Below are positions 1-32,000 of a DNA stretch of 32,000 nt, one piece after another; the first letter of the stretch is position 1; every line of letters begins with the position of its first letter. Origin of the DNA: Candidatus Saccharimonadota bacterium (GTDB lineage Archaea; Nanohalarchaeota; Nanosalinia; Nanosalinales; Nanosalinaceae); the NCBI GenBank assembly GCA_001761425.1, contig CP012986.1, positions 870,001 through 902,000 on the forward strand, written 5' to 3'. The notes beneath the pieces are model-generated. The model did no database searches. It had not been told where the DNA came from and was given only the letters and a program-made list of their open reading frames with translations. The position numbers and the translations under genes were made by a program.

Positions 1-16
1 GTTCTGGCTGAGAGAT

Positions 17-433
17 GTGAAGATGCTTGAGCAGAGTTATGGGTTGCTGAGAAGGATTTTGATAGTTCTTGTCGGTGTCTTAGTGCTTTACCGGCATGTG
101 AGGCAGGGTTCGGTTCTGGAGCAGTTTTCACAGTGGATAGTCTTCGCTCTTGTACTTTACCTGGAACTGGCTATCTCGTGGTTCCTGATGAGGACAATCG
201 ATCACATAGACCTGAGTTCGGACCTTAAAAACTGGACTCTACGGCTTCTAGGCCTTCCAACCGTCTTCGCAGGTTCAACGATATCTCTGGGGGCCCAGCC
301 ACTGATAACTTTCTCCTATACGCCAGAACTCTACGGCAACAACGTTTTCCTCGCCGGTATCCTGGTGATGATACTTGGAGGATTCATGATCTACAGGAGC
401 ACGAGAAGACAGCCAGCACTGAAGATATGGTAG
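17..433 (+). CDS. hypothetical integral membrane protein
   Basis: 138-aa ORF (GTG at 17, in-frame ATG at 23). Several hydrophobic helices (ILIVLVGVLVLY, WIVFALVLYLELAISWFLM, VFLAGILVMILGGFMIY). No family motif recognised. Confidence 0.45.
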   Translation: MKMLEQSYGLLRRILIVLVGVLVLYRHVRQGSVLEQFSQWIVFALVLYLELAISWFLMRTIDHIDLSSDLKNWTLRLLGLPTVFAGSTISLGAQPLITFSYTPELYGNNVFLAGILVMILGGFMIYRSTRRQPALKIW

Positions 434-568
434 AAAAACCCACAAAAAAGAATCTGTGACCGCATTTGAGATCTGTGTTTTCCGGAGTGGAAGAGTGCTT
501 AAATTAAACTCTGCCAAATATTTTCGTGATTGACAATGTAGAGTTCGAGACCCGCATATCTATAAGAT

Positions 569-862
569 ATGCTTCGACTAAATTTTACCATGGTAGAATT
601 CGAGACTATCGAGAAAGAAAGACGTGATTATGGAAACTTTCCGGGAGAAAAATTCATCGAGGTAAGCCGGAACAAGGCCATCCAGGACGACGGATCGGAG
701 AACAGCTTTATCCAGATCGCCACCGGTTACTACAACGATGAAGAACCTCAGTACAAGAAAAGGTTCACAGTCCCGACTGACGATAAAGCAGTGGATCAGA
801 TCGTTGAAAAACTTCCCGAAATGTTCGAGAAAGAGAAAGAAAATCGCGAATCAGAGGAGTAA
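569..862 (+). CDS. hypothetical small acidic cytoplasmic protein
   Basis: 97-aa ORF with ATG at 569 and a second in-frame ATG at 590 (MVEFETIEK...). Acidic, no TM segment. Followed by an AGGCCT hairpin plus a T6 run. Product not recognised. Confidence 0.5.
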   Translation: MLRLNFTMVEFETIEKERRDYGNFPGEKFIEVSRNKAIQDDGSENSFIQIATGYYNDEEPQYKKRFTVPTDDKAVDQIVEKLPEMFEKEKENRESEE

Positions 863-870
863 AAAATTAC

Positions 871-898
871 AGGCCTTACTGGAGGCCTCAACTTTTTT
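871..898 (+). terminator. hairpin plus oligo-T terminator candidate built from two AGGCCT palindromes
   Basis: AGGCCT (871-876) - tactgg - AGGCCT (883-888) can form a 6-bp stem with a 6-nt loop. T6 follows at 893-898. The structure starts 9 nt after the stop codon of 569-862. Confidence 0.4.
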
Positions 899-995
899 CC
901 AGTGTTTTTTCACTGCATCATCTACTTCTTGAAACAGTCCAGTAGTCGGGTCCTGAAGGCCAGTTTTTTTATCCAGGGTTTCGAAAATTTTCTGT

Positions 996-1202
996 ATGCA
1001 CTGGATTCAGAAGAAAATGATGGATTATCATCACGGTTATTTCATGGGTGTAGGCCTTGGACTTTTCCTGTTCGGCTTTGCAGTACAGGTCTTTTTGCTT
1101 CCTGAAGGCCTGAGACCGGAGAGTTTCCAGCTACTGACTGTTATTGGAGCATTGTTACTGGGTTATGGGACAGGAAGATGTGACCAGAAGGCCTGTAACT
1201 AA
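996..1202 (+). CDS. hypothetical small membrane protein
   Basis: 68-aa ORF with two hydrophobic helices (GYFMGVGLGLFLFGFAVQVFLL, LLTVIGALLLGYG). In-frame ATG ATG at 1017-1022 lies about 28 nt downstream of an A/T-rich box (984-992). Short ORF, weak support. Confidence 0.35.
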   Translation: MHWIQKKMMDYHHGYFMGVGLGLFLFGFAVQVFLLPEGLRPESFQLLTVIGALLLGYGTGRCDQKACN

Positions 1203-1232
1203 AAAAGCGTGTGGTGCTGGATTCGAGTTTTT

Positions 1233-1760
1233 TTATTGGTTTCTGTGATGCCAGTAAAACAGTAGTCTGGAGAATATTTCGTCCAGGGCTATGGTGAGTG
1301 TTATTATGAGGCCTGAAAAGCTTCCTAGGACTGCTGAGGCCTTTTGTTCTAGTGTGTTGAAGGCTGGGCCTTCTGATAGAGCGGTTTCCAGGAGCAGGTC
1401 GGTCGAGGACATGAATCCTCGGCAGTAAGGTTGTTCTGTGAAGATGCATGGTCGGTAGAGCAGTCCGAGTGCCAGTGTTGAGATCATTGCCGATGTTGCG
1501 ACCATGAGTTCTCCTTTCTCCCATTTTCCCTGGTATTTTTGCTCGAGGCTGTGTCTAAGCCGTGGGTAGAGGATCCTTGACCATATTGTCGCCAGTGAAA
1601 CTGAGATTACAGTAGCTGCTGTGAGCAGTATCCAGGCTGAGATAGGGACGAGCTGTCTGACCGGGCCAGCGGTAGATAGAAGGCCGAAAAAGATAGGGGG
1701 AACGATAAAGCCTAGAACAGGTGCAGAAACGAAAATTAAGGCCTTTCTGAAGTGATTCAT
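1233..1760 (-). CDS. hypothetical integral membrane protein
   Basis: 175-aa ORF with multiple hydrophobic segments (ALIFVSAPVLGFIVPPIFFGLL, ISAWILLTAATVISVSLATIW, MVATSAMISTLALGLLY, VLGSFSGLIITLTIAL). No family motif recognised. Confidence 0.55.
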   Translation of the reverse strand: MNHFRKALIFVSAPVLGFIVPPIFFGLLSTAGPVRQLVPISAWILLTAATVISVSLATIWSRILYPRLRHSLEQKYQGKWEKGELMVATSAMISTLALGLLYRPCIFTEQPYCRGFMSSTDLLLETALSEGPAFNTLEQKASAVLGSFSGLIITLTIALDEIFSRLLFYWHHRNQ

Positions 1761-1865
1761 ATCTAATTAGTTAAAGACGGAACTTGATAAGATTTTCCTG
1801 CGGAAGATTCTAGCTCACGGGAAAATAATCTTTTTGAACATCTAAATCCAGTTCTGTATTACAGG

Positions 1866-2201
1866 ATGGCCCTAGTTTACCCTGAGATAACTTTCGCATA
1901 TGTAATCAGTTTAATCGCTGGTATCTACGGCTTAGCTCTTTTAATATTTCTGAGGGAACTTAGGAAAAGGCCTGAAACAGTTATGGCACGTTTTAAACTT
2001 AACAGGGAGAAAACGACGACTGATTTCAGGAATATGCTGGCAGGTAATATCGTCCTGGCATTTTCCATGGTTTTACTGCTGGCAGCATCGATCAGTCAGA
2101 ACGAGGCGATACTGAACATTTCCTACACGATCCAGATACTATCCTCCAGCGTAATAGTCTACACTATCTCAACATGGGTGAAAGAATATGCAGTTAAGTA
2201 A
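1866..2201 (+). CDS. hypothetical 3-TM membrane protein (tandem pair, member 1)
   Basis: 111-aa ORF. Layout is TM helix, basic loop (RELRKRPE), then two more TM helices. Overlaps the next ORF by 14 nt. Confidence 0.5.
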   Translation: MALVYPEITFAYVISLIAGIYGLALLIFLRELRKRPETVMARFKLNREKTTTDFRNMLAGNIVLAFSMVLLLAASISQNEAILNISYTIQILSSSVIVYTISTWVKEYAVK

Positions 2202-2538
2202 TCCCCTGACTTTGCTAGCCGTTATAGGCCTCACAGCATTTGCCTTGGCCTCTTACTTCAATTACCAGGTATACAGAAGGCTTAAGAATGAGGGAGAGAC
2301 CACGATAGAATATCTGTTGATCAGAAGTGAGATAAAAAAGGCCTTGGAACTGCTTGTAGCATCGATCCTGATTTTTCTGCTGTCAACGCTGGTAACAGTG
2401 CTCGCTATTGAAACTGAAAGAATTCTACTGTCGCAGATTATCAGAGCAGGGAGTGCAGTAATGTTTATCTCTTATACAGGATTCTTTGCGGTGCTGGCGA
2501 TCTATACAAGGCCTGAGAAACTCGGAGGCCTTACGTAG
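2188..2538 (+). CDS. hypothetical 3-TM membrane protein (tandem pair, member 2)
   Basis: 116-aa ORF with the same layout as 1866-2201: TM helix, basic loop (YRRLKNEGE), two TM helices. The stop codon is flanked by a pair of AGGCCT copies (2526, 2553). Confidence 0.5.
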   Translation: MQLSNPLTLLAVIGLTAFALASYFNYQVYRRLKNEGETTIEYLLIRSEIKKALELLVASILIFLLSTLVTVLAIETERILLSQIIRAGSAVMFISYTGFFAVLAIYTRPEKLGGLT

Positions 2539-2579
2539 AAAATTGAAAGTAGAGGCCTGTAATTAACGCAATTTTTGAT

Positions 2580-3524
2580 CTAGATTTTGTCTACGTTGTC
2601 TTTGAGTGTTTCCATCTCTTTTGAGATTTTTCTGATTTCTTCTTTCATCTCTTTTTTCTGTTCTTTCAGTTTCTGAATATTGTTTTTCATGTCTTTTTTC
2701 TGTTCCTTGAGGGCTGTTTTTTTCTTCCTGAGCTTCTTCACTTTCTTCTTCAGTTTTTTGCCCTTGGTGTTGATCTTCTTTATTTTCTTTTTTTCATTGT
2801 TTTTTCTGTCTCTGAGCTGGCTGATCTCTTGTTGAAGGCCTTTTTTCTCTTCCCTGAGTTGTTTAACTTGTTTTTCTGCTTTCTCCTTTTCTTCCTTTGC
2901 TTCTACGGCCTGAGCGATTTTTTCATCCATCTTGTTGACTTTATCGAGTAACTGGCCGAAATCTTCGTCCGCTTCCAAATCTTCCAGATCATCAAGGCCT
3001 TCAGTTTCGCTGTTCGAATCTTCTGCATCTGTGTCGATTTCTTCTGTTTCATCTTCTATCTCCAGGTCTTCGTCATCGATTTCCAGATCTATATCTTCTT
3101 CCAGCTCTTCTAATTCATCGTCTTCGGATTCTGGTTCTCCGGTATCTTTATCTTCTGTTTCTTCACCCGGTTCACTGGTCTGTTCGTCTGCTTCAGTTTT
3201 TTGATCCTCGTTTTCCTCCTGTTTTTCTTCCTGTTTGTCTGTGTCGTTTGAGGCCTCTGTTTTTTCTTCGGAGTTTTCTTCAGAGGTTTCTGTTTTTTCT
3301 TCTGGTTGATCTGAGGCCTGTTTTTCTTGGTTGTTTTCGTTTTCAGGCGTTTCTTCTTTTTCTTTGTTTTTCTGTGTTTTTTCCTGTTGTTTGCTGTCCG
3401 TTTCGTCTTCTTGAGTGTTTTTGGCTTCTTCTACTTCTTGTTCTGTGTGTTCTTTCTTCTGGTGTAGCTTGAGGCCTTTTTTGCTGTTCATTTTTTTGTC
3501 GCATACCGGACAGGTGTAAGCCAT
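2580..3524 (-). CDS. C2H2 zinc-finger protein with poly-acidic middle and lysine-rich coiled-coil C-terminus
   Basis: 314-aa ORF with ATG start. N-terminal finger is YTCPVCDKKMNSKKGLKLHQKKEH (C-x2-C-x12-H-x4-H). About 190 aa of E/D-rich low complexity follow. The C-terminus is K-rich and heptad-like (KKLKKKVKKLRKKKTALKEQKK...). Lies 34 nt downstream of 3559-5151 on the same strand. Confidence 0.75.
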   Translation of the reverse strand: MAYTCPVCDKKMNSKKGLKLHQKKEHTEQEVEEAKNTQEDETDSKQQEKTQKNKEKEETPENENNQEKQASDQPEEKTETSEENSEEKTEASNDTDKQEEKQEENEDQKTEADEQTSEPGEETEDKDTGEPESEDDELEELEEDIDLEIDDEDLEIEDETEEIDTDAEDSNSETEGLDDLEDLEADEDFGQLLDKVNKMDEKIAQAVEAKEEKEKAEKQVKQLREEKKGLQQEISQLRDRKNNEKKKIKKINTKGKKLKKKVKKLRKKKTALKEQKKDMKNNIQKLKEQKKEMKEEIRKISKEMETLKDNVDKI

Positions 3525-3558
3525 ATGTTATGCTGTGGGTGTGGTGGTTGAAAAAAGT

Positions 3559-5151
3559 TTACTGGTTTTCAAACTGTTTTTTCAGCATTTGCAGAAGTTC
3601 TGGTTCTTCGGCCTGCATCTGGGTTCTGTGGGCTTTTAGCTTGTGTTTGATAAGTTTTTTGTGGAGTGCGAATTTTTCTCTGCAGTATGGGCATTCCTGT
3701 AGTTCTTCGGAGTGTACGTCTTCTTTGTGTTTTTTTAGGGCGTTGCTTGATCTGAATGTTTTTCTGCAGTTATCGCATCTGAAAAGCTCTACATCTTCGT
3801 GATTTATTTTTTTGCCTTTGAAAATCTGTAGTATTTTGGCTTTGAGGAACTGGAGGATGCTTTTCTGGCCTTCTTCAAGTTCCAGTACGAAAAGTGACTG
3901 TTCAAGATTTGAGATCCTGTCCTTTATACCTGCGGAGTTGTCTTCCATATCCTGGTATATTTTCTCTATCTTCTGTTTCTGAATCTGTTTTTTCTTTACT
4001 GCTTCCAGTGACTCTCTGTTTTCTTTCACCTTCTGATCTATATCGGCCATCTTTTCGTGGACTTGTATAAACCTGTCAATAGTCTTTTCGTCTATGGAGT
4101 CCTGTACTTCAGAGTTCTCAGCTATTTCCCTGATTTCTTCCACATCGTAGTTGGATTTCAGCTCTTCTATCTGGTCTTCAAGGCTTTCAAGGCCTTCAAT
4201 GTGTTCATAAACTGATTCAAGCTCTTGTTCTGTTACGAATCTGGTGTCCTCGTAGTCATCTATTTTTTCTATGGTGGCTTCTACTGCTGGAATCAGTCTC
4301 TGCATCTGTTTTTCTTTCTCCTCGACCGTGTTTTTGACTTCTTCAAAGTCCTGTTTTTCCGGCAGGTCGTTTACCTTGATCTGTACATCGTCGAAGAGTT
4401 TTCTTAGCTCGTGGAACCTGTCTGAGAGGCCTTCCTGTTGTTCTTCTATTCTTTCGACTTCTGAGACCTTTTCCTGCATTTCCAGGAACATGTCTTCTAC
4501 TTTGTTGGAGTAGGAATCCATTTTTTGTTCCTTTTCCTTGGCTTTCTGTAGATCCGACCTGATCTCTTTTTTCATGTCCTTTATCTGGTCGAGGCCTTCG
4601 AAGTCGTTGACTGTGGATCTTAGTTCGGATAATTCGTCTCTCAGGCCTTTTATTTCGTCTCTTGTGCTTTCTAACTGGCCTTCTATTTTTTCTATTTTTG
4701 CGTCTCTTTCCTCTATCTTTTTTTCTACTTCTCTTGGCTCTATTTTTTCTACGAGGTCCAGTGCTTTGTCTGCTTCCTGTTCTATTTTTCCTATTTTTTT
4801 CTCGTTTGATCGGGAGTTTTCTTTTGTGCTTCCGAGCCTGTCGGAGATTGTGTCCAGTCTTTCGTTGAAGGAGTTTACCCGTTGGCTCATGCTTTCTACC
4901 TGTGTTATGGCCTTCTGGTTGTTGCTCTTCATGTCCTGGACTTTTTTGCTCAGTTCCTGTGGTACTTCTGAGTCTGTCTGGACTTCTTCAGTTTCTTCTT
5001 CGGATCCGTCTATGGCCTCTCCCAGTGCGTCGTATATCTCTCCGTGCTCGTTTTTCTTGTGCATCTTGAGGTCTCTTACAGAATCGAAACCTTCCTCTCC
5101 ACAGTCTGCGCAGTTAAGTTGTTCTTTTTCGGACGGAGAGACTAGATCCAT
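3559..5151 (-). CDS. long coiled-coil protein capped by C2H2 zinc fingers at both ends
   Basis: 530-aa ORF with ATG start. N-terminal finger is NCADCGEEGFDSVRDLKMHKKNEH. About 430 aa of E/K/L/I heptad-rich sequence follow. Two C-terminal canonical fingers are FRCDNCRKTFRSSNALKKHKEDVH and QECPYCREKFALHKKLIKHKLKAH (C-x2-C-x3-F-x5-L-x2-H-x4-H). Confidence 0.8.
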   Translation of the reverse strand: MDLVSPSEKEQLNCADCGEEGFDSVRDLKMHKKNEHGEIYDALGEAIDGSEEETEEVQTDSEVPQELSKKVQDMKSNNQKAITQVESMSQRVNSFNERLDTISDRLGSTKENSRSNEKKIGKIEQEADKALDLVEKIEPREVEKKIEERDAKIEKIEGQLESTRDEIKGLRDELSELRSTVNDFEGLDQIKDMKKEIRSDLQKAKEKEQKMDSYSNKVEDMFLEMQEKVSEVERIEEQQEGLSDRFHELRKLFDDVQIKVNDLPEKQDFEEVKNTVEEKEKQMQRLIPAVEATIEKIDDYEDTRFVTEQELESVYEHIEGLESLEDQIEELKSNYDVEEIREIAENSEVQDSIDEKTIDRFIQVHEKMADIDQKVKENRESLEAVKKKQIQKQKIEKIYQDMEDNSAGIKDRISNLEQSLFVLELEEGQKSILQFLKAKILQIFKGKKINHEDVELFRCDNCRKTFRSSNALKKHKEDVHSEELQECPYCREKFALHKKLIKHKLKAHRTQMQAEEPELLQMLKKQFENQ

Positions 5152-5172
5152 GGTTATCTTTTCTCCTCGTTG

Positions 5173-5182
5173 AAATATAAGC
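5173..5182 (-). promoter_or_regulatory. TATA-box candidate for the 530-aa zinc-finger gene
   Basis: The minus strand reads GCTTATATTT, centred about 26 nt upstream of the ATG at 5151 and just after the giant gene stop (5186-5188). This could equally be a co-transcribed spacer (GGAG lies 13-16 nt upstream of the ATG). Confidence 0.3.
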
Positions 5183-5185
5183 TTG

Positions 5186-6313
5186 TCACATGTCTATTTC
5201 GTCTTCCAGCTCATTATTTAGCTCCTCTAGGTAGGTGTCTACGAGGTTGAAGCTCATCTTTCTAAGGTTCTTCTTGGCGAGGTTCAGACGTGATCTGTAG
5301 TCAAATACGTCCTCTCCCATGTCATCCAGTACATCTATCATGTCCTCTATCTTATCGATTCTTCTGTTGTAATCTTCGAATTTCTCGAGTTTGTCGTCAG
5401 ATATTTTTTCTGGACTGTGCTTTAGAGGCCTGAAGTCGACGAAGTAAGGCCTGCCGTGGTTGTAACTGGAGTTTTGTATCATTCCTGTTCCTGTGTTTGA
5501 TTTTGTGACTCCCTGTGAGATGTGGTCGCCGTATTTTCTCTGTATTCTGTCCAGGTCTCCTTCGTATTCTGTTCTCATCTGTACCTGTGTGCCGATGTTG
5601 GCTCTTACTTCTTCTGGGAAGTCGCCTATGACCTGGGAGATAAGTAGCATTCCTATGCCCCATTTACGGAATTCACGGGCTCCTCTTTCTAATTGTTTGA
5701 CTCCTTCTCCTGTTCCACCGAATTTTTCCAGTACTCTGTGTGCCTCGTCGTAGACTATGAGAGTTTGAAGTTGATCTGTTTCCTCAGGGTTGTATTCGAA
5801 TATCTGTTTGATTGTGTCCGAAAGGTATTTTTCAAGTTCTTCGTTGTCCAGCTTATGCATTGAGAAAACATGTATGCTGCCCTCGTCTTCCCCGCTTCTA
5901 AGTACATCTGTGATGTCTACTGTATCCTGGTCTGCTTCTACAGCTCTGATGTTCCCGGTGTAGTCGCGGGTGTCGGATTCGCTCATGCCGAAGTCTCCGA
6001 AGAAGGCCTCCATCTGCTGGTCCTCGTTTTCCTCGAGGTATCCCGACCATTGGCCTGTTGGATCTAGCACTATGACATTTACTCCTTTTTCCAGTGCCTC
6101 TTCTGCGATAACCTCTGCTGCTACTGTTTTTCCTGCTCCTGTGGCTCCTGCTGCTAGACAGTGTGTTTTCAGGTCTTCAAGGTTGAGGAATGCTCTCTTG
6201 CCGATTTCCGAAAGCTGTCCGACGAAGGCTGTTCTTCCTGTTTCATCGGGTAGTTCTGCGTTGTCGACCTGTTCGTCAAATCTTTTCTTTTTCTCCTCTA
6301 TTTTCTTCTTGCG
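5186..6313 (-). other. cytoplasmic HerA/FtsK-superfamily (DUF87/COG0433-like) ATPase domain of the giant protein
   Basis: Walker A GATGAGKT at 6125-6148. The DPTGQWSGY segment resembles the HerA DPHGEY motif. Walker B LIVYDEAH at 5738-5761. FRKWGIGMLLISQ resembles the EGRK.G...ISQ motif of HerA-like ATPases. Confidence 0.75.
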
Positions 6314-25637: not shown

Positions 25638-25671
25638 ATCTTTGTTAAAGAATCTAAAGTTTTTTAATAAT

Positions 25672-25704: not shown

Positions 25705-25705
25705 A

Positions 25706-26137: not shown

Positions 26138-26163
26138 TAAATTTCATATCACTTTGTAACAAT

Positions 26164-26547
26164 ATGAGCGTTGTAAGCGTATCACTAAACGACAAGCTGC
26201 TCGAAGACATTGACGATTTCATGGACGAACAAGGCTTCTCAGGTAGAAGTGAAGTGATGAGAACAGCTGTCAGAGCTTTACTCAGGGATAGAAAAGAAAT
26301 ATCAGGCCTTGAAGGAACAGTGGATGCTGTAATAATAGTGACGCACGAAGATGAAGATTCAGGAGAGATTGACGATATACAGCACGACTACCAGGAGACG
26401 ATCAGGACTCAGCTTCACAATCACATGGACGAACACAAATGTTTAGAGGTTTTTATGCTTCACGGAGAAGCAGAAAAAGTCAAAGAGCTATACAACAAGT
26501 TCCAGGCATCGAGTAAGGTTGAACAGGCGAAAATAATCGTGCCTTGA
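26164..26547 (+). CDS. nikR: nickel-responsive transcriptional regulator NikR
   Basis: 127-aa ORF. N-terminal ribbon-helix-helix (VSVSLNDKLLEDIDDFMDEQGFSGRSEVMRTAVRALL). C-terminal domain has H74, H85, H87 and C93, with the same spacing as the E. coli NikR high-affinity Ni ligands H76, H87, H89 and C95. Confidence 0.85.
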   Translation: MSVVSVSLNDKLLEDIDDFMDEQGFSGRSEVMRTAVRALLRDRKEISGLEGTVDAVIIVTHEDEDSGEIDDIQHDYQETIRTQLHNHMDEHKCLEVFMLHGEAEKVKELYNKFQASSKVEQAKIIVP

Positions 26548-26698
26548 TTTTTTGACCATGAATTTACTAAATTTTTGATTAATGACCCCAATTTTGGTTT
26601 CGCGAAGGATTAACGGCTCTGACTGTGATTTTATATCCTGATTTGAGCAGTTTTTATCGCCTTTTAGATTCGGAGAAGCAGATTTATGGATCAAGAGT

Positions 26699-26762
26699 AG
26701 GCCTTTTCCGGATTTGATGGTAGAGGCCTTTCATTTTTCGGGGAATTGGATGATTTAGGCCT
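26699..26762. repeat. three AGGCCT palindromes in a convergent intergenic region
   Basis: AGGCCT at 26699, 26724 and 26757, between the 3' ends of nikR (+) and 26772-27077 (-). T-runs lie nearby. Any two copies can pair as a 6-bp stem. Confidence 0.5.
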
Positions 26763-26771
26763 GTGGTGAGG

Positions 26772-27077
26772 TTATGTGTCTACGTCGTCTGGTAGTTCGT
26801 CGTCGTCTGGTCCTTGTTCTCTTTCTGCCTTGTCTTTGATGCGGTAGACGTTTGTTGAACGTGTGCATTCTGGGCATTCGATCCACCAGGGTCTTGAGCC
26901 AAGTTCCACGTCGTGTCTTTCGAACTCGTGCTGGCAGTAAGGACATGTTAGTTCGAAGAAGAAGTTTTCGTAGTCGTAGCTGAACATTTTGATGTGTCCA
27001 GTTTCTTCTCCTTCATCGTTTTCCACCTTTCTATTGGTTGCGTATTCGACGCGGTCGTAGTCTACGTCTTTTTCCAT
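26772..27077 (-). CDS. small zinc-ribbon protein
   Basis: 101-aa ORF. CPYC-x17-CPEC four-cysteine ribbon. Acidic N- and C-termini. Confidence 0.6.
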   Translation of the reverse strand: MEKDVDYDRVEYATNRKVENDEGEETGHIKMFSYDYENFFFELTCPYCQHEFERHDVELGSRPWWIECPECTRSTNVYRIKDKAEREQGPDDDELPDDVDT

Positions 27078-27160
27078 GGCTACTACACTAAGTATAACGG
27101 GGATGAATTAGTTTTAAGTTTTTCATCTATAAGGATTTTCCGAGTTCTGAAAGAAATTGT

Positions 27161-27685
27161 TTATGCGAGCATCTCCCTGTAAACCAGGTCCAGTTCTTCA
27201 TCTGAGACCTCGATCTCTACCTGTTTAAGGCCTTCGATATCTCCGATAGCCTGTTCGATGTCTAAAAATTCCTTCGGTTCATCAGTTTTCAACTGTTTGA
27301 TACCAGGATTGTACTCCCTGAGTTTTCTGAGATCCCATTTTCTGTCCGAGTTCAGAACTACAAGGTCGTATCCGTCCATCGTCGCCAGTAAGGCCTTTAC
27401 TGCGTCTTCTCTGTCTTCGATCCTGATGTAGGCCTGTTCCTGGAGAGGTCTTCCTTTCAGGCCTTCTTTTGTCTCTCCTTCTACGGTGTATTCTTCGATT
27501 CCAGGGGTTTTTTCGAGGAATTCTGTGTTTTCTGCTTCGATTACTACTTTTTCTCCCTGTATCTGTGCGTTTCCTTTTCTTTTTTCCAGTTGTTCTTTCA
27601 TTAACTGGATTTTTTCGGTGGGTTTGATTTCGATCTTCATGTTCTCTGTTTTTCGGTTAAAACCTTTTATTTGGGCGTTGACCAA
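27161..27685 (-). CDS. hypothetical cytoplasmic protein
   Basis: 174-aa ORF. The more likely start is the ATG at 27640 (MKIEIKPTEK...), about 30 nt from an A/T box. Charged, no TM segment. No family recognised. Confidence 0.6.
   Translation of the reverse strand: MVNAQIKGFNRKTENMKIEIKPTEKIQLMKEQLEKRKGNAQIQGEKVVIEAENTEFLEKTPGIEEYTVEGETKEGLKGRPLQEQAYIRIEDREDAVKALLATMDGYDLVVLNSDRKWDLRKLREYNPGIKQLKTDEPKEFLDIEQAIGDIEGLKQVEIEVSDEELDLVYREMLA
27663..27674. promoter_or_regulatory. shared A/T box between divergent genes (bidirectional TATA candidate)
   Basis: CCTTTTATTTGG lies about 27 nt upstream of the ATG at 27695 (+) and about 30 nt upstream of the ATG at 27640 (-). Confidence 0.3.
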
Positions 27686-28051
27686 ACTATTGTGATGGGC
27701 TTTTTTGATCGGAATGATGACGATGAGCAGGTTGAGGAGGTAACTCTTTCAGTACCTGATGAAGACGAGGAAGAGGGACGGCTTAAGGATGAGGCAGAGG
27801 CCCGTCTGACCGGTGATAGTTCTTCAGAGTCTTCGGATTCAGATGATACTTCAGGAATGCTTCCCGGAATGGGATCTTCCTCTAGCTCTACAGGAAGCTC
27901 TGGCAAGTCTTCCGGCCGTTCGAGAAGCAGTGGAAAGAAAGAGTCCGTCAGCCTTGAAGATATTCACAGGCAGAACAAGCAGATTAAAAGCATACTGAAG
28001 GATATCAGGTCAGAGATCAAGGACGAAGGTGACATGAATGGGGTACTATGA
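27671..28051 (+). CDS. acidic/serine-rich disordered protein with C-terminal amphipathic helix
   Basis: 126-aa ORF (TTG at 27671; likely ATG at 27695 giving MGFFDRNDDDEQ...). D/E/S low complexity, then LEDIHRQNKQIKSILKDIRSEIKD. Overlaps the next ORF by 14 nt. Confidence 0.5.
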   Translation: MGVDQTIVMGFFDRNDDDEQVEEVTLSVPDEDEEEGRLKDEAEARLTGDSSSESSDSDDTSGMLPGMGSSSSSTGSSGKSSGRSRSSGKKESVSLEDIHRQNKQIKSILKDIRSEIKDEGDMNGVL

Positions 28052-28526
28052 CAACGTGAAAGATTCTATAAGAGATGAAAACAGCGAAAAAGACAGCGGT
28101 GAAGAAGAGGCCTCAGGTTCAGGCAGTGATTCAAGCCCTGGTGCAGGAAACTTTGATACTTTGAGAGAAGCAGCCGAAGAGACAAAGGTAGAGGAAGATG
28201 AAGAGAGCGGAGACGATACACCGATTGAGATACTTGAAGAAGACGGTCTTAGACAGGAGGCGCCGTCGAATCAACGCACAGAGGCCTCGACGCAGAGACA
28301 GAAAAAAACACAGAAAAGATCTCAGCAGAGAACCAAGGAGAAACAGAGACGGCAGGGAAACTCTAATGAAGGCCTGAACAAGAGCGAAAATGTTTCACAG
28401 GCCTCTGAAGCCCAGAATGATTCTCGAACTGTTTCTGGAGATACCTCCGACTTGGAGGATAAACTGGATAAAATCATCGAGCAGAATGCTCGTATGATCG
28501 AGATACTGGAAGGCTTCGGGAACTAG
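28038..28526 (+). CDS. acidic disordered protein with C-terminal amphipathic helix (paralogue-like of 27671-28051)
   Basis: 162-aa ORF starting MGYYDNVKD. Acidic/Ser-rich region, a basic patch (QRQKKTQKRSQQRTKEKQRRQ), then LEDKLDKIIEQNARMIEILEG. Confidence 0.5.
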   Translation: MGYYDNVKDSIRDENSEKDSGEEEASGSGSDSSPGAGNFDTLREAAEETKVEEDEESGDDTPIEILEEDGLRQEAPSNQRTEASTQRQKKTQKRSQQRTKEKQRRQGNSNEGLNKSENVSQASEAQNDSRTVSGDTSDLEDKLDKIIEQNARMIEILEGFGN

Positions 28527-28591
28527 AAGGCCTTAACTGCTTCTGGGGCTTTTAGCGTAGGAAAATCTCTTTTTTACTGGAGATTTTCGGT

Positions 28592-28870
28592 TTATTCTAC
28601 TACTTCTACGCTTATTTTCTGTCGGCCTTCGTCTGTTGTTTCGACTTCTTCTCTGAGTGTGATCTCGAGTTCCAGTGTTCTCTGTTCGCTTCCCTGGTAG
28701 AAGTTAAGTGATAGGTCTGTGTCTTCTGTTGGCTCTATCTCTACTTCCTCCTTCCCTTTGAAGCTGAGGCCTACTTTGCCTTCTCTGATCTTCTGGGAGA
28801 AGTTTTCCAGGAAATTGGCGAGTTCATCGTTGTCAAAACTGAAATCAAGGTCGACTTCCTTGCTGGACAT
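28592..28870 (-). CDS. small acidic protein, amphi-Trp-domain-like (weak)
   Basis: 92-aa ORF. The pattern FSFDNDELANFLENFSQKIREGKVGLSFKG...VEIEPTEDTDLSLNF...LELEITL resembles small amphi-Trp-type proteins common in halophilic archaea. The terminal Trp residues are absent. Confidence 0.5.
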   Translation of the reverse strand: MSSKEVDLDFSFDNDELANFLENFSQKIREGKVGLSFKGKEEVEIEPTEDTDLSLNFYQGSEQRTLELEITLREEVETTDEGRQKISVEVVE

Positions 28871-28915
28871 AGGATAAAAGGGGTAGTAAAAAGTTTTATT
28901 TTTGGTGCCTGTTCG

Positions 28916-29212
28916 TTACTCCTTGTTCATTAATTTCCGTGCCAGGAAGTGGTCTTTTTCGTTGAGTTCTCTGACTGCTTCGGTTGAGAACAGGTATGCT
29001 GTGCCCATAAGAAGTAGTCCTACATAGGCCTGCATTGTTTCAGGTGGCTGGTGGAAGTAAAACACTGAGATAACCATCATGAGGCCTGAGATGAATAATG
29101 TCATTGAGAGGCCCATTTCGGCTTCTGTGGATAGCTTTGGTAGGCCGAAACTGTCTCTTTCTGGTTCTGAGTTTGTTTCAGATTCAGGTTCTGATTCTTT
29201 ATCTTCTGCCAT
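28916..29212 (-). CDS. hypothetical 2-TM membrane protein
   Basis: 98-aa ORF. Acidic N-terminus, then helices GLSMTLFISGLMMVISVFYF and YVGLLLMGTAYLFS. Confidence 0.55.
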   Translation of the reverse strand: MAEDKESEPESETNSEPERDSFGLPKLSTEAEMGLSMTLFISGLMMVISVFYFHQPPETMQAYVGLLLMGTAYLFSTEAVRELNEKDHFLARKLMNKE

Positions 29213-29255
29213 AGGTAAGTATTATTGAAGGACCATTTAAATTTTATCTGTTTGC

Positions 29256-29642
29256 TCAGTCCAGGTCCTCTACATTTACATCGCTGTTACCTGGTTCAAA
29301 GGCTGACGGCAGGTGGATATGATATACTCCCTCGGATTTCTCGATGACAAGCGGCATCTCTTCCAGGAGACGTGAAACGTTGATATTGTATACTCCTTCT
29401 TCCTCAACGCTGATGGAGTCCAGATCGAACTCTAGCTTGATGTTGCCTTTTTCCTTGCTTCCCTCGGCTATCATGCTCTGGATATCTGTCTTGACCTCTT
29501 CTTTCTCTTCTTCAAGTTCTTCTTCAGAAAGCGATTCCTCGTTTTCGTACATGAACAGGGAGGAACCGCATTCACAGCCGTCTATAAGTTCATCGGAATC
29601 GTCTTCATATGTAAGACCGCAGTTCATGCATCTGTGTGGCAT
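29256..29642 (-). CDS. archaeal Zn-ribbon protein (DUF2072-like)
   Basis: 128-aa ORF. N-terminus MPHRCMNCGLTYEDDSDELIDGCECGSSLFMYE matches my memory of the conserved archaeal Zn-ribbon family found next to DUF2073 and a small GTPase. Confidence 0.7.
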   Translation of the reverse strand: MPHRCMNCGLTYEDDSDELIDGCECGSSLFMYENEESLSEEELEEEKEEVKTDIQSMIAEGSKEKGNIKLEFDLDSISVEEEGVYNINVSRLLEEMPLVIEKSEGVYHIHLPSAFEPGNSDVNVEDLD

Positions 29643-29738
29643 TCAAAACCTACCTCCATAACTTTTTTCCCGTCTAAAAATTCGAACAGCTTCTTCCGCT
29701 TTACCCTGGGAAGACTGTAGAAAACGTCTCATTTTTGC

Positions 29739-30128
29739 CTAGTTGCTTTCGTCTTCGAGTTTGGCGAGGAACGAAACAGTATCTTTCTCCTCTTTGATTT
29801 TCTCCATCACACGTGAGTTGCCAACGATCGTGAGGCCTCTTCTGTATTCCTCGTTAAGAAATTTCTGGTAGACCAGTCTCTTCGCCTTGTCTAACCGTGT
29901 ATTTCCTGCGTCAAGGCCTAGAAACTCTACGCCTGGAAAGTCTTCGTCGACCTGTTCCATTGAACTCTGGATCAGTTCGCTTTTTTCTTCAGGTGTCCAG
30001 GCCTCTTCAAGTACAAGTACTGCGTTTTCCTGGACTTTTTCGAGTACTATGTCCAGTTTTTCGTTGAACTGCTGGTCTGTCAGTTTCTCCTTTGACAGGA
30101 ACTCGATGGTGACTCCGTCCTCTCCCAT
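29739..30128 (-). CDS. DUF2073-like conserved archaeal protein
   Basis: 129-aa ORF. IEFLSKEKL...VLVLEEAWTPEEKSELIQSSMEQVDEDFPGVEF resembles the DUF2073 pattern. TAATG overlap with the upstream GTPase gene. Confidence 0.65.
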   Translation of the reverse strand: MGEDGVTIEFLSKEKLTDQQFNEKLDIVLEKVQENAVLVLEEAWTPEEKSELIQSSMEQVDEDFPGVEFLGLDAGNTRLDKAKRLVYQKFLNEEYRRGLTIVGNSRVMEKIKEEKDTVSFLAKLEDESN

Positions 30129-30772
30129 TACGTTAACCTTTCAATTATTTCCTCATAAAGTTTGTCGATGTTTTCTCCTTCTTTCGCAGAGATTTCAAGC
30201 ACTGGATGCTGTGGGAATGCGTCTCTGACTCTTTCCGGATCTGCATCCTCCAGATCTGTCTTGTTAGCCAGTACAAGGATCGGTATGTCTTTTGCTTCCA
30301 GGTTGCCGATGATCGTAACGTTTACCTGTGTGTATGGATCTTCTGTGGAGTCAAAGATTACGAGACATGCGTCTACATCGTCAAGATACTTGATAGCTTC
30401 TACTATGCCTTTTGTTGCTTCCTTGGCTCTTCCTTTTGCCTGTTCCTCTTCAAGACCGTGCTCTGTGAAGTCCTTGAAGTCTACATTCGTGGATATTCCA
30501 GGCATGTCCAGAAGGTTGAGATCCAGTGTTCTACCGTCCTCGGATTCTATTGTGACTTTCTCCTTTTTTTCAACGGCTCTGGTCTCGTGCGGTACTTCGG
30601 ATACGTTGCTCATCTCCTCGCCTGTCAGGTCCTGGGAGATCTGGTTCGCTAACGTGGACTTGCCTGCGTTAGGAGGGCCGTAGATCCCTATCCCGATATC
30701 ATCTTTTCCTGAACCACTGAACAAGTTGCTGATAAGTTTCCTGAGGCGAGATATCATTTTGACACCGCTCAA
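30128..30772 (-). CDS. small GTP-binding protein
   Basis: 214-aa ORF (TTG at 30772, ATG at 30758). G1 GPPNAGKST, G3 DMPG, G4 NKTD, G5 SAK. Confidence 0.85.
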   Translation of the reverse strand: MSGVKMISRLRKLISNLFSGSGKDDIGIGIYGPPNAGKSTLANQISQDLTGEEMSNVSEVPHETRAVEKKEKVTIESEDGRTLDLNLLDMPGISTNVDFKDFTEHGLEEEQAKGRAKEATKGIVEAIKYLDDVDACLVIFDSTEDPYTQVNVTIIGNLEAKDIPILVLANKTDLEDADPERVRDAFPQHPVLEISAKEGENIDKLYEEIIERLT

Positions 30773-30853
30773 TAATAAATCCGGAGACTAGATATAAAAA
30801 CCATTTCATTGAAAGGCATGGATTAAATAAAAAAAGCGGTTCAAATCACAGAT

Positions 30854-31288
30854 ATGAGAACTGAAAAAGGAGTGGTCGTGGTAGCATACAAAGAAGTCAG
30901 GAGAAACCTCCGCTACCTCGTACTCAAAAGAACAAAGAACTGGGAAGGCTGGGAACTACCAAAAGGCCACCTCGAAAACGACAACTACAGAGAAACCGTC
31001 AAACTCGAACTAGGTGAGGAAACAGGCCTGGAAGAGGAAAAAATTGAAGAAGTACAGGAAATGGAAAAGAAGCTCGAATGGACCTTTGAAGACGACGGAG
31101 AAAATGTGAAACGGGAGTACAAGGCCTTTGTTGTGAAGATAGGTGAGGATGCTGTGGTCGATGTTTCCGGTAATCCTCATGATGAGCATGAGAACGGGTT
31201 TTTCCTGGATTACGAGGACGCTTCTTCGCTCTTGACCTATGATAATCAGAAAGAGCTTCTGGAACAGGGTAAGGAGAGCCTGGAGTAA
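30854..31288 (+). CDS. Nudix hydrolase (Ap4A-hydrolase-like)
   Basis: 144-aa ORF. WELPKGHLENDNYRETVKLELGEETGLE is a slightly shortened Nudix box with the PKGH.E and E-E-x-G-L signature. Confidence 0.75.
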   Translation: MRTEKGVVVVAYKEVRRNLRYLVLKRTKNWEGWELPKGHLENDNYRETVKLELGEETGLEEEKIEEVQEMEKKLEWTFEDDGENVKREYKAFVVKIGEDAVVDVSGNPHDEHENGFFLDYEDASSLLTYDNQKELLEQGKESLE

Positions 31289-31334
31289 CTTATATGTTAA
31301 AAGGCCTTGATGCCGAGTATTTGTTTGTGATACT

Positions 31335-31589
31335 ATGAGCAAGCCTGATGAACTTCTGGAGGTTTACCAGTTTGAACAGTGTCCTTACTGTTCGAAGGTC
31401 CGTAAACAGCTTACAGAGATGCAGATAGACTTTATCGCAAGACAGGTCGAACCGAACGGAGATCGTGAGAAGCCTGAGGAGTTGACCGGTGAGACACAGG
31501 TTCCAGTCCTGGTTGATCCTGACAATGACACAGTGATGAACGAGAGCGATGACATAATCCAGTATCTGGAAGAAACTTACGGAGAATAA
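31335..31589 (+). CDS. glutaredoxin-like protein
   Basis: 84-aa ORF. CPYC active site in YQFEQCPYCSKVRKQL. VPVLVDP and a D-rich end are consistent with a thioredoxin fold. Confidence 0.8.
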   Translation: MSKPDELLEVYQFEQCPYCSKVRKQLTEMQIDFIARQVEPNGDREKPEELTGETQVPVLVDPDNDTVMNESDDIIQYLEETYGE

Positions 31590-31600
31590 ATTCTTTCTCA

Positions 31601-31630
31601 AGGCCTTGAAAAAGGCCTGGTTCTTTTTTT
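31601..31630 (+). terminator. bidirectional hairpin/oligo-T terminator candidate built from two AGGCCT palindromes
   Basis: AGGCCTT (31601-31607) - GAAA - AAGGCCT (31612-31618) gives a 7-bp stem with a GAAA loop. T7 follows at 31624-31630. It sits between the convergent stops at 31589 (+) and 31629 (-). Confidence 0.5.
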
Positions 31631-31994
31631 ACAGCACTTTTTTGACTTTGTCTACTGCGTCACTCATCTCTACTTTTACTAGGCCCATGTTGACGTCGCT
31701 TTCTGTTAGTATTGCGAGTATTCCTTCGTCTCCTGCTCCTGTGGCGATAAGTTTTCCGTTAGCTGCTTCTATACTTACTTCGTCCACGTCTCCCATGTTC
31801 AATGCTTCGCTGGCGGTTTCTCCTGATCCTACCGTGGATGCTGTCATCGCACCGACCTGATCGTCATCAATGTCCTGGCCAAGGTTGGATGCGATCAGTA
31901 AACCGTCTCTTCGTACCACTGCTGCTCCTTTAATCCCCTGGACACTGTCCAGATCATCCAGCGGCTCGTTCAACTTTTCCTCCTTACTTGACAT
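31629..31994 (-). CDS. roadblock/LC7 (MglB-like) domain protein
   Basis: 121-aa ORF. LDSVQGIKGAAVVRRDGLLIASNLG...VSIEAANGKLIATGAGDEGILAILT is typical of the Robl/LC7 fold. Confidence 0.8.
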   Translation of the reverse strand: MSSKEEKLNEPLDDLDSVQGIKGAAVVRRDGLLIASNLGQDIDDDQVGAMTASTVGSGETASEALNMGDVDEVSIEAANGKLIATGAGDEGILAILTESDVNMGLVKVEMSDAVDKVKKVL

Positions 31995-32000
31995 TTTATA

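Follow-up and report, generated by a model that had tools for sequence, protein, structure and literature searches.

AGGCCT as a lineage-specific highly iterated palindrome in a subset of Nanohaloarchaea

A subset of Nanohaloarchaea has a lineage-specific 'highly iterated palindrome' (HIP), the hexamer AGGCCT. In one small halophilic archaeon that lives in symbiosis, about 70% of the positions in coding sequence at which the proteins permit it, and some amino acids too, have been turned into this one word. The DNA analysed here, called the window below, is a stretch of 32,000 nucleotides from a 1.1-Mb nanohaloarchaeal (DPANN) contig. It had previously been described in a sequence-only reading, which noticed the excess and offered three explanations for it.

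Abundance of AGGCCT in the window

An exact count yielded 81 AGGCCT sites at a GC content of 44.3%, in agreement with the roughly 80 copies, their coordinates and the 43% GC given in the sequence-only reading, whose copy numbers for the two dense blocks (Table 1) were also correct. Its expectation of five to six copies was matched by a mononucleotide model (5.7) and by 100 dinucleotide-preserving shuffles (5.9 +/- 2.4, maximum 12, none of the 100 reaching 81), and the enrichment in the window is 14-fold. Per-strand Markov expectations were 6.5 for order 1, 15.1 for order 2, 34.9 for order 3, and 73.9 for order 4. The values at high order simply take up the motif, for AGGCCT accounts for 81 of the 96 AGGCC and 81 of the 97 GGCCT. 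AGGCCT has the top z-score among all 4096 hexamers of the window (z = 24, order-2 model), and the words ranked directly below it all overlap it. Sixty-two sites lie in coding sequence (2.2/kb) and 19 in intergenic DNA (5.8/kb). Within-gene shuffling of synonymous codons left 12.3 +/- 2.8 coding sites with a maximum of 21, which rules out codon or amino acid bias as the source. The enrichment is real and acts at the level of DNA.

Past the end of the window the density is still 3.9/kb over 9.3 kb, and the spacing of sites is Poisson-like (pooled coefficient of variation 1.09). Close pairs of sites, which had been singled out as hairpin-forming, do not exceed the Poisson frequency, and their special standing is not supported. 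The giant gene has 24 positions that synonymous changes could turn into AGGCCT, of which 18 are realised. These occupy all three codon phases, and arithmetic on the gene's reading frame bears out the phases reported for 7832 (R-P), 7914 and 9753 (G-L), and 10774 (xAG-GCC-T). Significance had been seen in the neighbourhood of its HerA-type motor; this is uninformative, as the motif goes on beyond the window and relatives, an enriched genome among them, do not have the giant gene at this locus. The sites reported directly after stop codons at 18388 and 28528 are in place. The site at 19240 does overlap a tRNA 5' end, that of an intron-containing tRNA(UGA) on the minus strand (19118-19244, 48-nt intron), which was missed by a default ARAGORN run but found with introns allowed and by an Rfam tRNA match of 52 bits at 19121-19243.

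Table 1. Features of the window that bear on the distribution of AGGCCT
Feature	Position	Strand	Basis or remark
Dense block, 24 sites (4.6/kb)	1..5185	.	site count
Convergent (3'-3') spacer, 5 sites (871, 883, 1052, 1106, 1189)	863..1232	.	
Giant 3315-aa gene (Laminin_G_3, MG2, C-terminal HerA/DUF87), 18 sites	5186..15133	-	
Site over first acceptor-stem bases (GGCCU) of intron-containing tRNA(UGA)	19240..19245	.	
Two sites (20389, 20530) gained in this lineage only, inside the cassette's PALP-rhodanese gene	20389..20535	-	
AGGCCT-free desert	20536..26064	.	largest gap, 5535 bp, vs mean spacing of about 330 bp
Five-gene cassette (201-aa unknown, PLP decarboxylase, CbiA-like protein, 163-aa unknown, CobW)	21089-25637		
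Dense block, 25 sites; core region syntenic with relatives 26772-31994	26065..32000	.	
Convergent spacer, 3 sites (26699, 26724, 26757)	26548..26771	.	
Site at invariant Gly-Leu dipeptide, clearest synonymous in-situ conversion	28767..28772	-	orthologue alignment
Site made together with a Gly-Ile to Gly-Leu change, NUDIX gene	31024..31029	+	aligned hexamers
Convergent spacer, 2 sites 12 bp apart (31601, 31613), 6-bp stem possible	31590..31628	.	

Origin of the sites by point substitution

In the genes of the window 62 of 85 synonymously reachable positions (73%) are realised as AGGCCT, including 38 of 46 in the phase xxA-GGC-CTx and every one in the genes at 2188-2538 and 2580-3524. Of 65 Gly-Leu pairs 44 have the glycine codon GGC, which makes up only 26% of all glycine codons. 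The coding capacity for AGGCCT is close to saturation. Aligned positions in non-enriched genomes read AGGACT, AGGTCT, or AGGGCT. At the invariant Gly-Leu dipeptide AGGCCT is found in seven of eight enriched genomes, and all 22 non-enriched orthologues encode Gly-Leu there, mostly as AGGACT. At the NUDIX site 19 of 20 non-enriched orthologues have Gly-Ile where the window has Gly-Leu. Of 12 sites that could be aligned, about two-thirds involve an amino acid other than that of most non-enriched genomes, and peptide contexts compatible with the motif number 14.1 per 1000 amino acids in enriched genomes versus 8.7 in non-enriched ones. The force behind AGGCCT is strong enough to alter proteins.

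The ratio of the motif to its one-mismatch variants is shifted 10.8-fold at the outer, 13.8-fold at the middle, and 16.9-fold at the inner positions; all six are favoured about equally, and the whole hexamer, not a part of it, is recognised. A weak purine preference at -1 noted earlier was recovered by counting (A 40%, G 30%, T 10%), but apart from this 'not T' the flanks are uninformative, with nothing from +/-2 outward. The copies are independent sites which arose by point substitution in situ. That they are a dispersed repeat, a miniature mobile element, a product of codon or amino acid bias, or an assembly artefact can practically be dismissed, as nothing beyond the raw count speaks for it (the commonest octamer, AAGGCCTT, has 16 copies in the window). 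A repeat or element, which the sequence-only reading had itself considered, was rejected by the uninformative flanks and by sites lying in frame within conserved genes without indels relative to orthologues, bias by the codon-preserving shuffles, and an artefact by the recurrence of the enrichment in independent assemblies, two complete genomes among them.

Distribution among relatives

The comparison with relatives which had been proposed gave a 16.3-fold enrichment over 118 kb in seven enriched genomes and 1.04-fold over 318 kb in 25 non-enriched ones. In enriched genomes the density is 2.5-4.4/kb, on both strands and in all reading frames. An enrichment of 10-21-fold occurs in three separate lineage groups; sister lineages with good support stand near 1-fold, and some others fall in between. 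Not one of 200 bootstraps joined the strongly enriched genomes into a single clade, and one pair (L013, L009) with 21-fold enrichment is sister to a group (L206, L029, L010) with 0.6-2.7-fold at 99.5% support. The realised fraction of positions is graded across genomes, with values of 59-75% at the top, 15-47% in the middle, and 0-8% at the bottom. Close relatives differ by gain or loss of the enrichment, which behaves as if tied to a mobile gene.

Selection might instead preserve AGGCCT sites, each of them advantageous, because an abundant chromosomal protein binds there to organise the nucleoid or to act in replication, segregation, or repair. Such an explanation, which is in line with recognition of the whole hexamer and with the few sites in the window's divergent, promoter-bearing spacers, has already been argued for HIP1 (PMC5861425), but it appears unlikely here. 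Selection would have to be effective at about 3000 sites in a genome of 1.1 Mb and powerful enough to alter amino acids, the spacing is random rather than regular, and sister lineages thrive without the motif. Separate enriched lineages do occupy shared positions, but this is expected in any case, given how few positions can be reached and how close these are to saturation. Large effective population sizes may leave room for per-site selection.

An exchanged cassette without sites

The desert spans the five-gene cassette, the 5' part of the PALP-rhodanese gene, and a ParB_N gene. Cassette genes share 84-93% amino acid identity with those of other lineages, and at fourfold degenerate sites they are 52-62% identical as compared to 31-45% for flanking core genes. 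The cassette is site-free in further enriched genomes (L209, L204, L208, L210, L214). Judged from these identities, the site-free stretch of about 5.5 kb is a cassette swapped between lineages after the surrounding genome had diverged. At the two sites gained in its PALP-rhodanese gene all six alignable orthologues read AGGTCT, AGGGCT, AGGACT, AGGATT, CGGACT, or CGGATT. Recently exchanged DNA is motif-free and undergoing conversion to AGGCCT. A low-GC island in L034 is likewise without the motif. The cassette has two motif-compatible peptide contexts where 12.5 are expected, a shortage for which simple recency fails to account.

These data bear on the first proposal of the earlier reading, a signal for DNA uptake or self-recognition. 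In such a signal, whether DUS/USS-like or Chi-like, a receptor or recombination factor preferring AGGCCT DNA, methylated or not, would spread the motif among conspecifics by biased uptake and recombination. The density, which spans both strands and every frame, the lack of sites in exchanged or foreign DNA, and the clear exchange of DNA among these lineages by homologous recombination would fit, as would the concentration of sites in convergent spacers of the window (13 in 751 bp versus 1 in 552 bp of divergent ones). In a cyanobacterium methylated HIP1 boosts natural transformation more than 100-fold, and HIP1 abundance tracks DNA-uptake genes (10.1101/2024.09.10.611283, 10.64898/2026.06.24.733823). 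Yet AGGCCT is a bare palindrome of just 6 bp, its enrichment is sporadic in close relatives and no stable family trait, close inverted pairs are not in excess, and enriched genomes have imported a cassette of more than 4 kb with zero sites. The spacer contrast is modest over eight loci with crude gene calls (7.1/kb convergent versus 5.2/kb divergent). We know of no sequence-specific DNA uptake in archaea. An uptake signal is considered rather unlikely.

Methylation as the candidate driving force

The likeliest candidate for recognising AGGCCT is a Type II DNA methyltransferase that is mobile and probably orphan. Under this proposal a mutation or an incoming allele which completes an AGGCCT open to methylation would be kept preferentially, by methylation-coupled mismatch-repair bias or by recombination, and each tolerated position would be ratcheted towards AGGCCT in a molecular drive acting on the whole site. 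This HIP-type drive on the target of a lineage-specific methyltransferase is favoured tentatively, and we infer drive rather than per-site selection. The second proposal of the sequence-only reading, a target of methylating or DNA-binding activity, is the best fit of the three, with AGGCCT as a candidate target. In the enriched genome M3_22 the only restriction-modification gene is that of a Type II methyltransferase with predicted m4C specificity (PMC10609329). A methyltransferase gene was not found in the window, its 9.3-kb flank, or about 1.2 Mb of related loci. Depletion of one-mismatch neighbours, a trace that a pure mutational sink might leave, is not visible, and the Poisson spacing does not match a saturation set by repair-tract distance.

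The third proposal, in which an m5C methyltransferase is coupled to Vsr-type very-short-patch repair that turns T:G at the methylated cytosine into C:G so that sites pile up, is largely refuted by the neighbour spectrum and thus very unlikely. An archaeal precedent for GGCC-type m5C methylation with T/G-mismatch repair is M.MthTI with Mig.Mth on plasmid pFV1. AGGTCT/AGACCT stands at 0.86 of the non-enriched level, no lower than AGGACT (0.76) or AGGCGT (0.68). AGGCTT/AAGCCT, which may have come from deamination, is slightly higher, not lower, in enriched than in non-enriched genomes (1.59 versus 1.18). The outer A/T positions, which such repair cannot drive, are enriched about as strongly as the cytosines, and conversions are mostly GGA to GGC, a transversion. 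The Dcm/Vsr pair of E. coli yields only a small CCWGG excess. For M3_22 a REBASE survey showed neither a Vsr gene nor an m5C methyltransferase (PMC10609329).

Comparison with known systems

AGGCCT is also the recognition sequence of StuI isoschizomers and of M.AboORF2079P/AboORF2079P from Alcanivorax borkumensis SK2, where SMRT sequencing showed the second cytosine of each strand to be methylated (AgGCcT) at nearly all 1674 sites (PMC12128166). That organism, in contrast to the source of the window, is bacterial, has an active endonuclease, and carries only about 0.5 site/kb. Like CCWGG under Dcm/Vsr in E. coli, AGGCCT would be a methyltransferase target whose abundance depends on repair, and with M.MthTI/Mig.Mth of the Methanothermobacter plasmid it shares the GGCC core and the archaeal setting; it differs from both in showing no specific loss of a T-containing neighbour, in not being confined to the cytosine position, and in a far larger magnitude.

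The uptake sequences of Neisseria (DUS) and Pasteurellaceae (USS) are 9-12-nt non-palindromic words with an extended consensus, stable within families, frequently arranged as inverted pairs at short distance, and linked to competence by type IV pili. AGGCCT resembles them in its overabundance across the genome on either strand and in every frame, its enrichment near gene 3' ends, its absence from recent acquisitions, and the possible explanation by molecular drive; as a 6-bp palindrome of sporadic occurrence with neither extended consensus nor close-pair excess it is unlike them.

The closest likeness is to the cyanobacterial palindromes, namely HIP1 (GCGATCGC), GGCGCC in Calothrix PCC 7103, GCsGC in Cyanothece PCC 7822, and rCCGGy in Oscillatoria PCC 10802. 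The alternate HIPs (GGCGCC, observed/expected about 15 or more) are sporadic, and each co-occurs with a methyltransferase of matching specificity (PMC4390886). AGGCCT, too, is a short GC-rich palindrome of sporadic phylogeny with an observed/expected ratio of 15 or more, of the hexameric kind that Type II methyltransferases typically target, present as independent sites throughout coding and non-coding DNA at about 1/kb or more, and open to the same proposals of a repair ratchet, selection, or a transformation aid (PMC4390886, PMC5861425, 10.1101/2024.09.10.611283). It is an archaeal counterpart of these palindromes. Differences are the archaeal (DPANN) host, the identity with the StuI site, the higher density, and a cognate methyltransferase that is a candidate, with no gene found in the loci read. 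The archaeal motif also differs in that it nearly saturates the reachable codon positions and has measurably remodelled the proteins.

Abundance and Arrangement of AGGCCT

The hexamer AGGCCT occurs 81 times in the 32 kb window, which has a GC content of 44.3% and for which base composition predicts 5.7 copies. The strong over-representation claimed by a sequence-only reading was thereby borne out by the exact count, and the positions listed by this reading agreed exactly with the recount. Its counts for separate blocks of the window were correct as well, as were the codon phases stated for the giant gene, the sites just 3′ of stop codons, the site overlapping the 5′ end of a tRNA, and the preference for purines at position −1. 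Dinucleotide-preserving shuffles yielded 5.9 ± 2.4 copies with a maximum of 12, and Markov models gave expectations per strand of 6.5 (order 1) and 15.1 (order 2). The values of 34.9 and 73.9 obtained with orders 3 and 4 are high because these models absorb the motif itself, 81 of the 96 AGGCC and 81 of the 97 GGCCT words being parts of AGGCCT. The hexamer is the second commonest of the window and, judged in its order-2 context, ranks first by z-score among the 4096 hexamers, the next-ranked words being words which overlap it. Shuffling of synonymous codons within genes, which keeps the protein sequence and the codon usage of each gene, yielded 12.3 ± 2.8 sites (maximum 21) versus 62 coding sites observed, and codon or amino acid bias is therefore excluded. 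As the 9.3 kb rightward of the window contain 36 further copies (3.9 per kb), the excess is genomic and not local. A related locus, L203, was found to be 100% identical to the window in a strain-level comparison.

The coding sites amount to 2.2 per kb and the 19 intergenic sites to 5.8 per kb. If a position is called reachable where the protein permits AGGCCT by synonymous codon choice, 62 of 85 reachable positions (73%) are realised; of the 46 in the Gly-Leu phase, 38 are. GGC is the codon of 44 of the 65 glycines preceding leucine and of 26% of all glycines. In the flanks of 368 sites from seven enriched loci, i.e., loci from nanohaloarchaeal genomes with an excess of AGGCCT, T is avoided at −1 and A at +1, the flanks being otherwise uninformative. 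The bare hexamer is the unit and not a longer repeat. A dispersed repeat of the MITE or REP type was rejected on the same grounds, with no conserved sequence found beyond the core and no insertions in the in-frame comparison with orthologues. Distances between sites are exponentially distributed (pooled CV 1.09) with a share below 50 bp equal to expectation; the close, potentially hairpin-forming pairs which had been singled out from the sequence occur no more often than expected from a Poisson process. Convergent 3′-3′ spacers of the window carry 13 sites in 751 bp, and divergent spacers one site in 552 bp. Over eight enriched loci the densities were 7.1 (convergent), 5.2 (divergent), 4.5 (tandem), and 2.8 (coding) sites per kb, a contrast weaker than in the window and resting on crude calls of open reading frames. 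The tRNA (anticodon UGA) scored 52 bits with Rfam; default ARAGORN gave a false negative due to the 48-nucleotide intron and found the gene when introns were allowed.

Coordinates of features and codon phases of AGGCCT sites
Feature	Sequence	Position	AGGCCT sites
Codon phase xxA-GGC-CTx (Gly-Leu)	window		38 (coding)
Codon phase xAG-GCC-Txx	window		17 (coding)
Codon phase AGG-CCT (Arg-Pro)	window		7 (coding)
Variable island	window	863-19766	1.8-5 per kb
Giant gene (3315 aa)	window	5186-15133(-)	
tRNA gene	window	19118-19244(-)	
Metal-related cassette	window	19767-26547	
Metal-related cassette	L206	6217-13723	
Metal-related cassette	L209	6265-13663	
Site-free stretch	window	20536-26064	0
Five cassette genes	window	21089-25637	0
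CbiA-like protein gene	window	23112-24065	0
Syntenic block used for alignment	window	26772-31288	
Collinear gene block	window	28592-30757	
GTPase gene	window	30128-30757	0
Low-GC island with the following Mrr_cat gene	L034	861-7647	
Mrr_cat endonuclease gene	L034	6946-7647	
Patch of sites	L206	5157-6993	6

Variable Island and Site-Free Cassette

The giant gene encodes a protein with Laminin_G_3 and MG2 domains and a C-terminal HerA/DUF87 ATPase domain. In a crude hydropathy scan of this protein no stretch of 19 residues exceeded a mean Kyte-Doolittle value of 1.8, and the membrane anchor ascribed to the motor by the sequence-only reading is therefore only putative. The gene is part of a variable insertion missing here in relatives, including the enriched L209. 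The whole island of about 19 kb, located between the orthologue of gene 569-862 and the cassette, is absent at the locus in relatives. Apart from the giant Laminin_G/MG2/HerA protein it encodes two C2H2 zinc-finger/coiled-coil proteins and a protein of 764 aa which matches MG2 weakly. The island resembles a variable surface-protein island, yet is already rich in AGGCCT. The neighbourhood of a HerA-type motor, to which the sequence-only reading had attached meaning, is uninformative because the motif is found genome-wide.

AGGCCT is absent from a gap of 5535 bp, the mean distance between sites being about 330 bp. When metagenomes were scanned with the CbiA-like protein encoded in this gap, 12 related loci were retrieved. 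In three of them (L206, L209, and L213) the cassette sits between orthologues of genes 569-862 and 26772-27077 in the order NikR, ParB_N, CobW, 163-aa protein, CbiA-like protein, PLP decarboxylase, and PALP-rhodanese, the orientation in the window being inverted relative to these loci. The cassette proteins are 84–93% identical across lineages, with 52–62% identity at 4-fold degenerate sites. At such sites the flanking core genes, including the equally conserved GTPase, show only 31–45% identity, and the genes adjoining the cassette have 40–76% amino acid identity across the same lineages. The higher 4-fold identity of the cassette as compared to its flanks therefore indicates exchange between lineages after the genomes had diverged. 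In mosaic cassettes (L204, L207, L208, L209, L210, and L214) the CobW and 163-aa genes are only 24–28% identical, and these divergent genes carry AGGCCT. The conserved part is AGGCCT-free in the enriched L209, L204, L208, L210, and L214. In the PALP gene the Gly-Leu positions 20389 and 20530 are already AGGCCT in the lineage of the window, and all six alignable orthologues have AGGACT, AGGTCT, AGGGCT, AGGATT, CGGACT, or CGGATT.

The cassette genes contain two motif-compatible contexts versus 12.5 ± 3.5 from shuffled proteins, and among windows of the same size in non-enriched proteomes only 0.3% have so low a count. Recent import accounts for the missing sites of the cassette, but not for the missing potential sites. 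A second example is provided by the complete genome M3_22 (L034), in which an island of low GC (37.7% versus 45.9%) is AGGCCT-free over 5.7 kb, contains a gene with an AbiTii domain, and is directly followed by a Mrr_cat restriction-endonuclease gene. AGGCCT is thus under-represented in recently acquired DNA, both in the cassette and in this island.

Origin of the Sites

By an exact protein match the window is placed on a contig of 1,125,078 bp (Ga0136257_100001) from JGI metagenome 3300010222. Reference genomes scanned with the conserved GTPase assigned it to a nanohaloarchaeon (DPANN), with Candidatus Nanohalobium metagenome-assembled genomes being nearest. In the syntenic block the sites of the window were codon-aligned to eight genomes with and 22 without enrichment. 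At position 28767 an invariant Gly-Leu is encoded by AGGCCT in seven of the eight enriched genomes and mostly by AGGACT in the non-enriched ones, and position 27459 has the same pattern. No insertions or deletions were found at the aligned sites of this block, and the AGGCCT sites arose in place through substitution. Within the block the GTPase (MMR_HSR1), OapB, OapC, two small proteins, and an Amphi-Trp protein are collinear across nanohaloarchaea, and GTPase, OapB, and OapC are still neighbours in more distantly related nanohaloarchaea as well as in a metagenome-assembled genome of Aenigmatarchaeota. The GTPase itself has no motif-compatible contexts.

The excess over expectation was 16.3-fold in 118 kb of enriched and 1.04-fold in 318 kb of non-enriched sequence. 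Between these two sets the ratio of the motif to its one-mismatch neighbours shifted 10.8-fold at the outer, 13.8-fold at the middle, and 16.9-fold at the inner positions, and from this similar shift in all three symmetry classes it follows that the acting force reads the whole hexamer. The remaining NGGCCN words occur at equal levels in both sets. An explanation by very-short-patch (Vsr) repair, which had been proposed from the sequence, is disfavoured. It predicts a specific loss of AGGTCT or AGGCTT, for which the ratios of enriched to non-enriched were 0.86 and 1.35, and transversion neighbours were depleted as much as AGGTCT or more. It further predicts enrichment only at the methylated cytosine, whereas the outer positions are driven as well, and the commonest conversion, GGA to GGC, is a transversion.

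Another finding was that the proteins differ, too. Enriched loci have 14.1 motif-compatible peptide contexts per 1000 residues as compared to 8.7 for non-enriched ones, and the window without the giant gene and the cassette has 59 such contexts versus 37.9 from shuffled proteins (P < 0.001). About two-thirds of the 12 window sites in alignable conserved genes go along with an amino acid differing from the non-enriched majority. Examples are site 31024, with Gly-Leu in the window and Gly-Ile in 19 of 20 orthologues, and site 29082, where Gly-Leu is faced by Gly-Thr, Gly-Val, or Gly-Ser. The proteins have been measurably reshaped by a force acting on the DNA, and the changed codon choice and amino acids matter for analyses of evolutionary rate and codon usage in DPANN archaea.

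Distribution among Relatives

A bootstrapped neighbour-joining tree was calculated from eight concatenated syntenic proteins (1055 columns, 200 replicates). All enriched genomes fall into one clade (94.5% support) which also holds non-enriched ones, and the strongly enriched genomes were monophyletic in none of the 200 bootstraps. Three enriched groups interleave with groups at about 1-fold. Two genomes at 21-fold (L013, L009) are sister to three at 0.6–2.7-fold (L206, L029, L010) with 99.5% support, L034 and L015 (10–14-fold) group with L019 (3-fold) and L047 (0.6-fold), and the window forms a clade with L003 and L002 (100% support). The realised fraction of reachable positions is 59–75% in strongly enriched genomes, 15–47% in an intermediate set (L034, L209, L012, L006, L010, L206, L016, and L011), and 0–8% in the remaining ones. 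The trait is evolutionarily labile, having been either gained repeatedly or lost repeatedly with subsequent decay, a behaviour expected of a trait linked to a mobile gene. The patch of sites in the otherwise non-enriched L206, which has only 8 sites in 21 kb overall, might have been imported from an enriched relative, an idea dropped as no matching donor sequence was found.

Enrichment recurs in genomes assembled independently, two of them complete, which refutes an assembly artefact just as the shuffles refute codon bias and the flanks a repeat element. Enriched genomes include Ga0136257_100001, NZ_CP180230.1, and CP046106.1, and non-enriched ones J07AB43 and NHA25. The force acting at the DNA level in these DPANN genomes is real and strong. 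Full-text literature searches turned up no publication describing an excess of AGGCCT in archaea, nanohaloarchaea included.

Possible Mechanisms

Three readings are left, namely a methyltransferase-linked drive acting on the whole site, an uptake or recombination signal, and a selected protein-binding site. The first is favoured, though it is held tentatively and falls somewhat short of probable. The StuI site AGGCCT is a six-base palindrome of canonical Type II form, and AGGCCT-specific methylation occurs in Alcanivorax borkumensis (PMC12128166). The sporadic occurrence is like that of the alternate highly iterated palindromes of cyanobacteria, each of which has a matching methyltransferase (PMC4390886). 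In the repair-ratchet model put forward for such palindromes any mutation completing a methylatable site would be favoured, in keeping with a shift that is uniform over the hexamer; the model presupposes methyl-directed mismatch repair, an assumption for nanohaloarchaea. With about 3000 sites per 1.1-Mb genome and with amino acid changes, a deterministic bias is easier to conceive than selection site by site, and selection of AGGCCT as a protein-binding site is considered rather unlikely.

Against a methyltransferase-linked drive stands that no methyltransferase gene was found in the window, 9.3 kb of its flank, and about 1.2 Mb of related loci. A regular expression search of every open reading frame there for m5C and N4/N6 methyltransferase motifs gave nothing usable, and the only gene family restricted to enriched loci was a 140-aa reading frame common to L012 and L209. 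For those window proteins which lacked an annotation, PADLOC, NCBIfam, and Pfam searches returned nothing but coiled-coil noise and ParB_N, a domain also occurring in non-enriched relatives. A REBASE survey of archaeal genomes lists for M3_22 one Type II methyltransferase, a candidate predicted to be of the m4C type, but no m5C methyltransferase and no Vsr or T:G glycosylase gene (PMC10609329).

Megablast of 13 kb against a phage collection gave no match. Viral contigs with three AGGCCT within about 80 bp were mostly tandem repeats or chance among the matches listed, and one better candidate among these (L164) is a plasmid or phage of bacterial type. Two related IMG/VR contigs (L083 and L158, GC 36%) carry dispersed AGGCCT with unrelated flanks, the first 13 copies over 3.6 kb and the second 8 over 5 kb, an excess inflated by the selection of clusters in the scan. 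In 14.3 kb of a Micrarchaeota metagenome-assembled genome (L081) GCGCGC/CGCGCG is about 11-fold over the expectation from composition (25–27 copies), which may be another lineage-specific DPANN palindrome or a simple effect of alternating repeats.

Comparison with Known Systems

A pure uptake or recombination signal is likewise considered rather unlikely. Like the bacterial DNA uptake sequences (DUS/USS), AGGCCT is enriched in convergent spacers and scarce in recently acquired DNA. However, it fails two of their defining features: DUS/USS have a non-palindromic core of 9–12 nucleotides with an extended consensus, whereas AGGCCT is a 6-bp palindrome with flanks informative only at −1 and +1, and they frequently form close inverted pairs as terminator hairpins, whereas AGGCCT has no excess of pairs. 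The signature of Vsr-type repair, i.e., neighbour depletion and enrichment of the cytosine only, is not shown either. Methylated HIP1, a highly iterated palindrome of cyanobacteria, is reported to boost natural transformation, and its abundance to track DNA-uptake genes (preprints 10.1101/2024.09.10.611283 and 10.64898/2026.06.24.733823), so that methylation and uptake may be two faces of one mechanism. More speculative, and decidedly doubtful, is the idea that AGGCCT, probably methylated, serves as a tag of self in nanohaloarchaeal DNA traffic. Conspecific DNA would then be marked for uptake or recombination, or be spared from the nucleases with which these symbionts, auxotrophic for nucleotides, attack host DNA. 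If true, a first identity signal of the uptake or Chi type would thereby be known from Archaea, and repeated gain and loss would define recombination compatibility groups inside the clade.

The hyperabundant palindromes of cyanobacteria have been an open problem for three decades. Nanohaloarchaeal AGGCCT adds an independent case, evolutionarily young and labile, from very small archaeal genomes. As enriched, intermediate, and non-enriched sister lineages have been sequenced and some relatives are in culture, a natural series is at hand to find the gene and to split drive from selection, and this ready-made series could render the long-standing question testable. In practice the motif offers a strong signature by which nanohaloarchaeal contigs can be binned, and it helps to date the exchange of DNA between lineages. 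With HIP1 and its alternates AGGCCT shares that it is a GC-rich palindrome far above other words, that its sites are independent and dispersed over coding and noncoding DNA in all three codon phases, and that it is lineage-specific and absent from related genomes. Judged by sequence-level criteria alone, AGGCCT belongs in form with the highly iterated palindromes.
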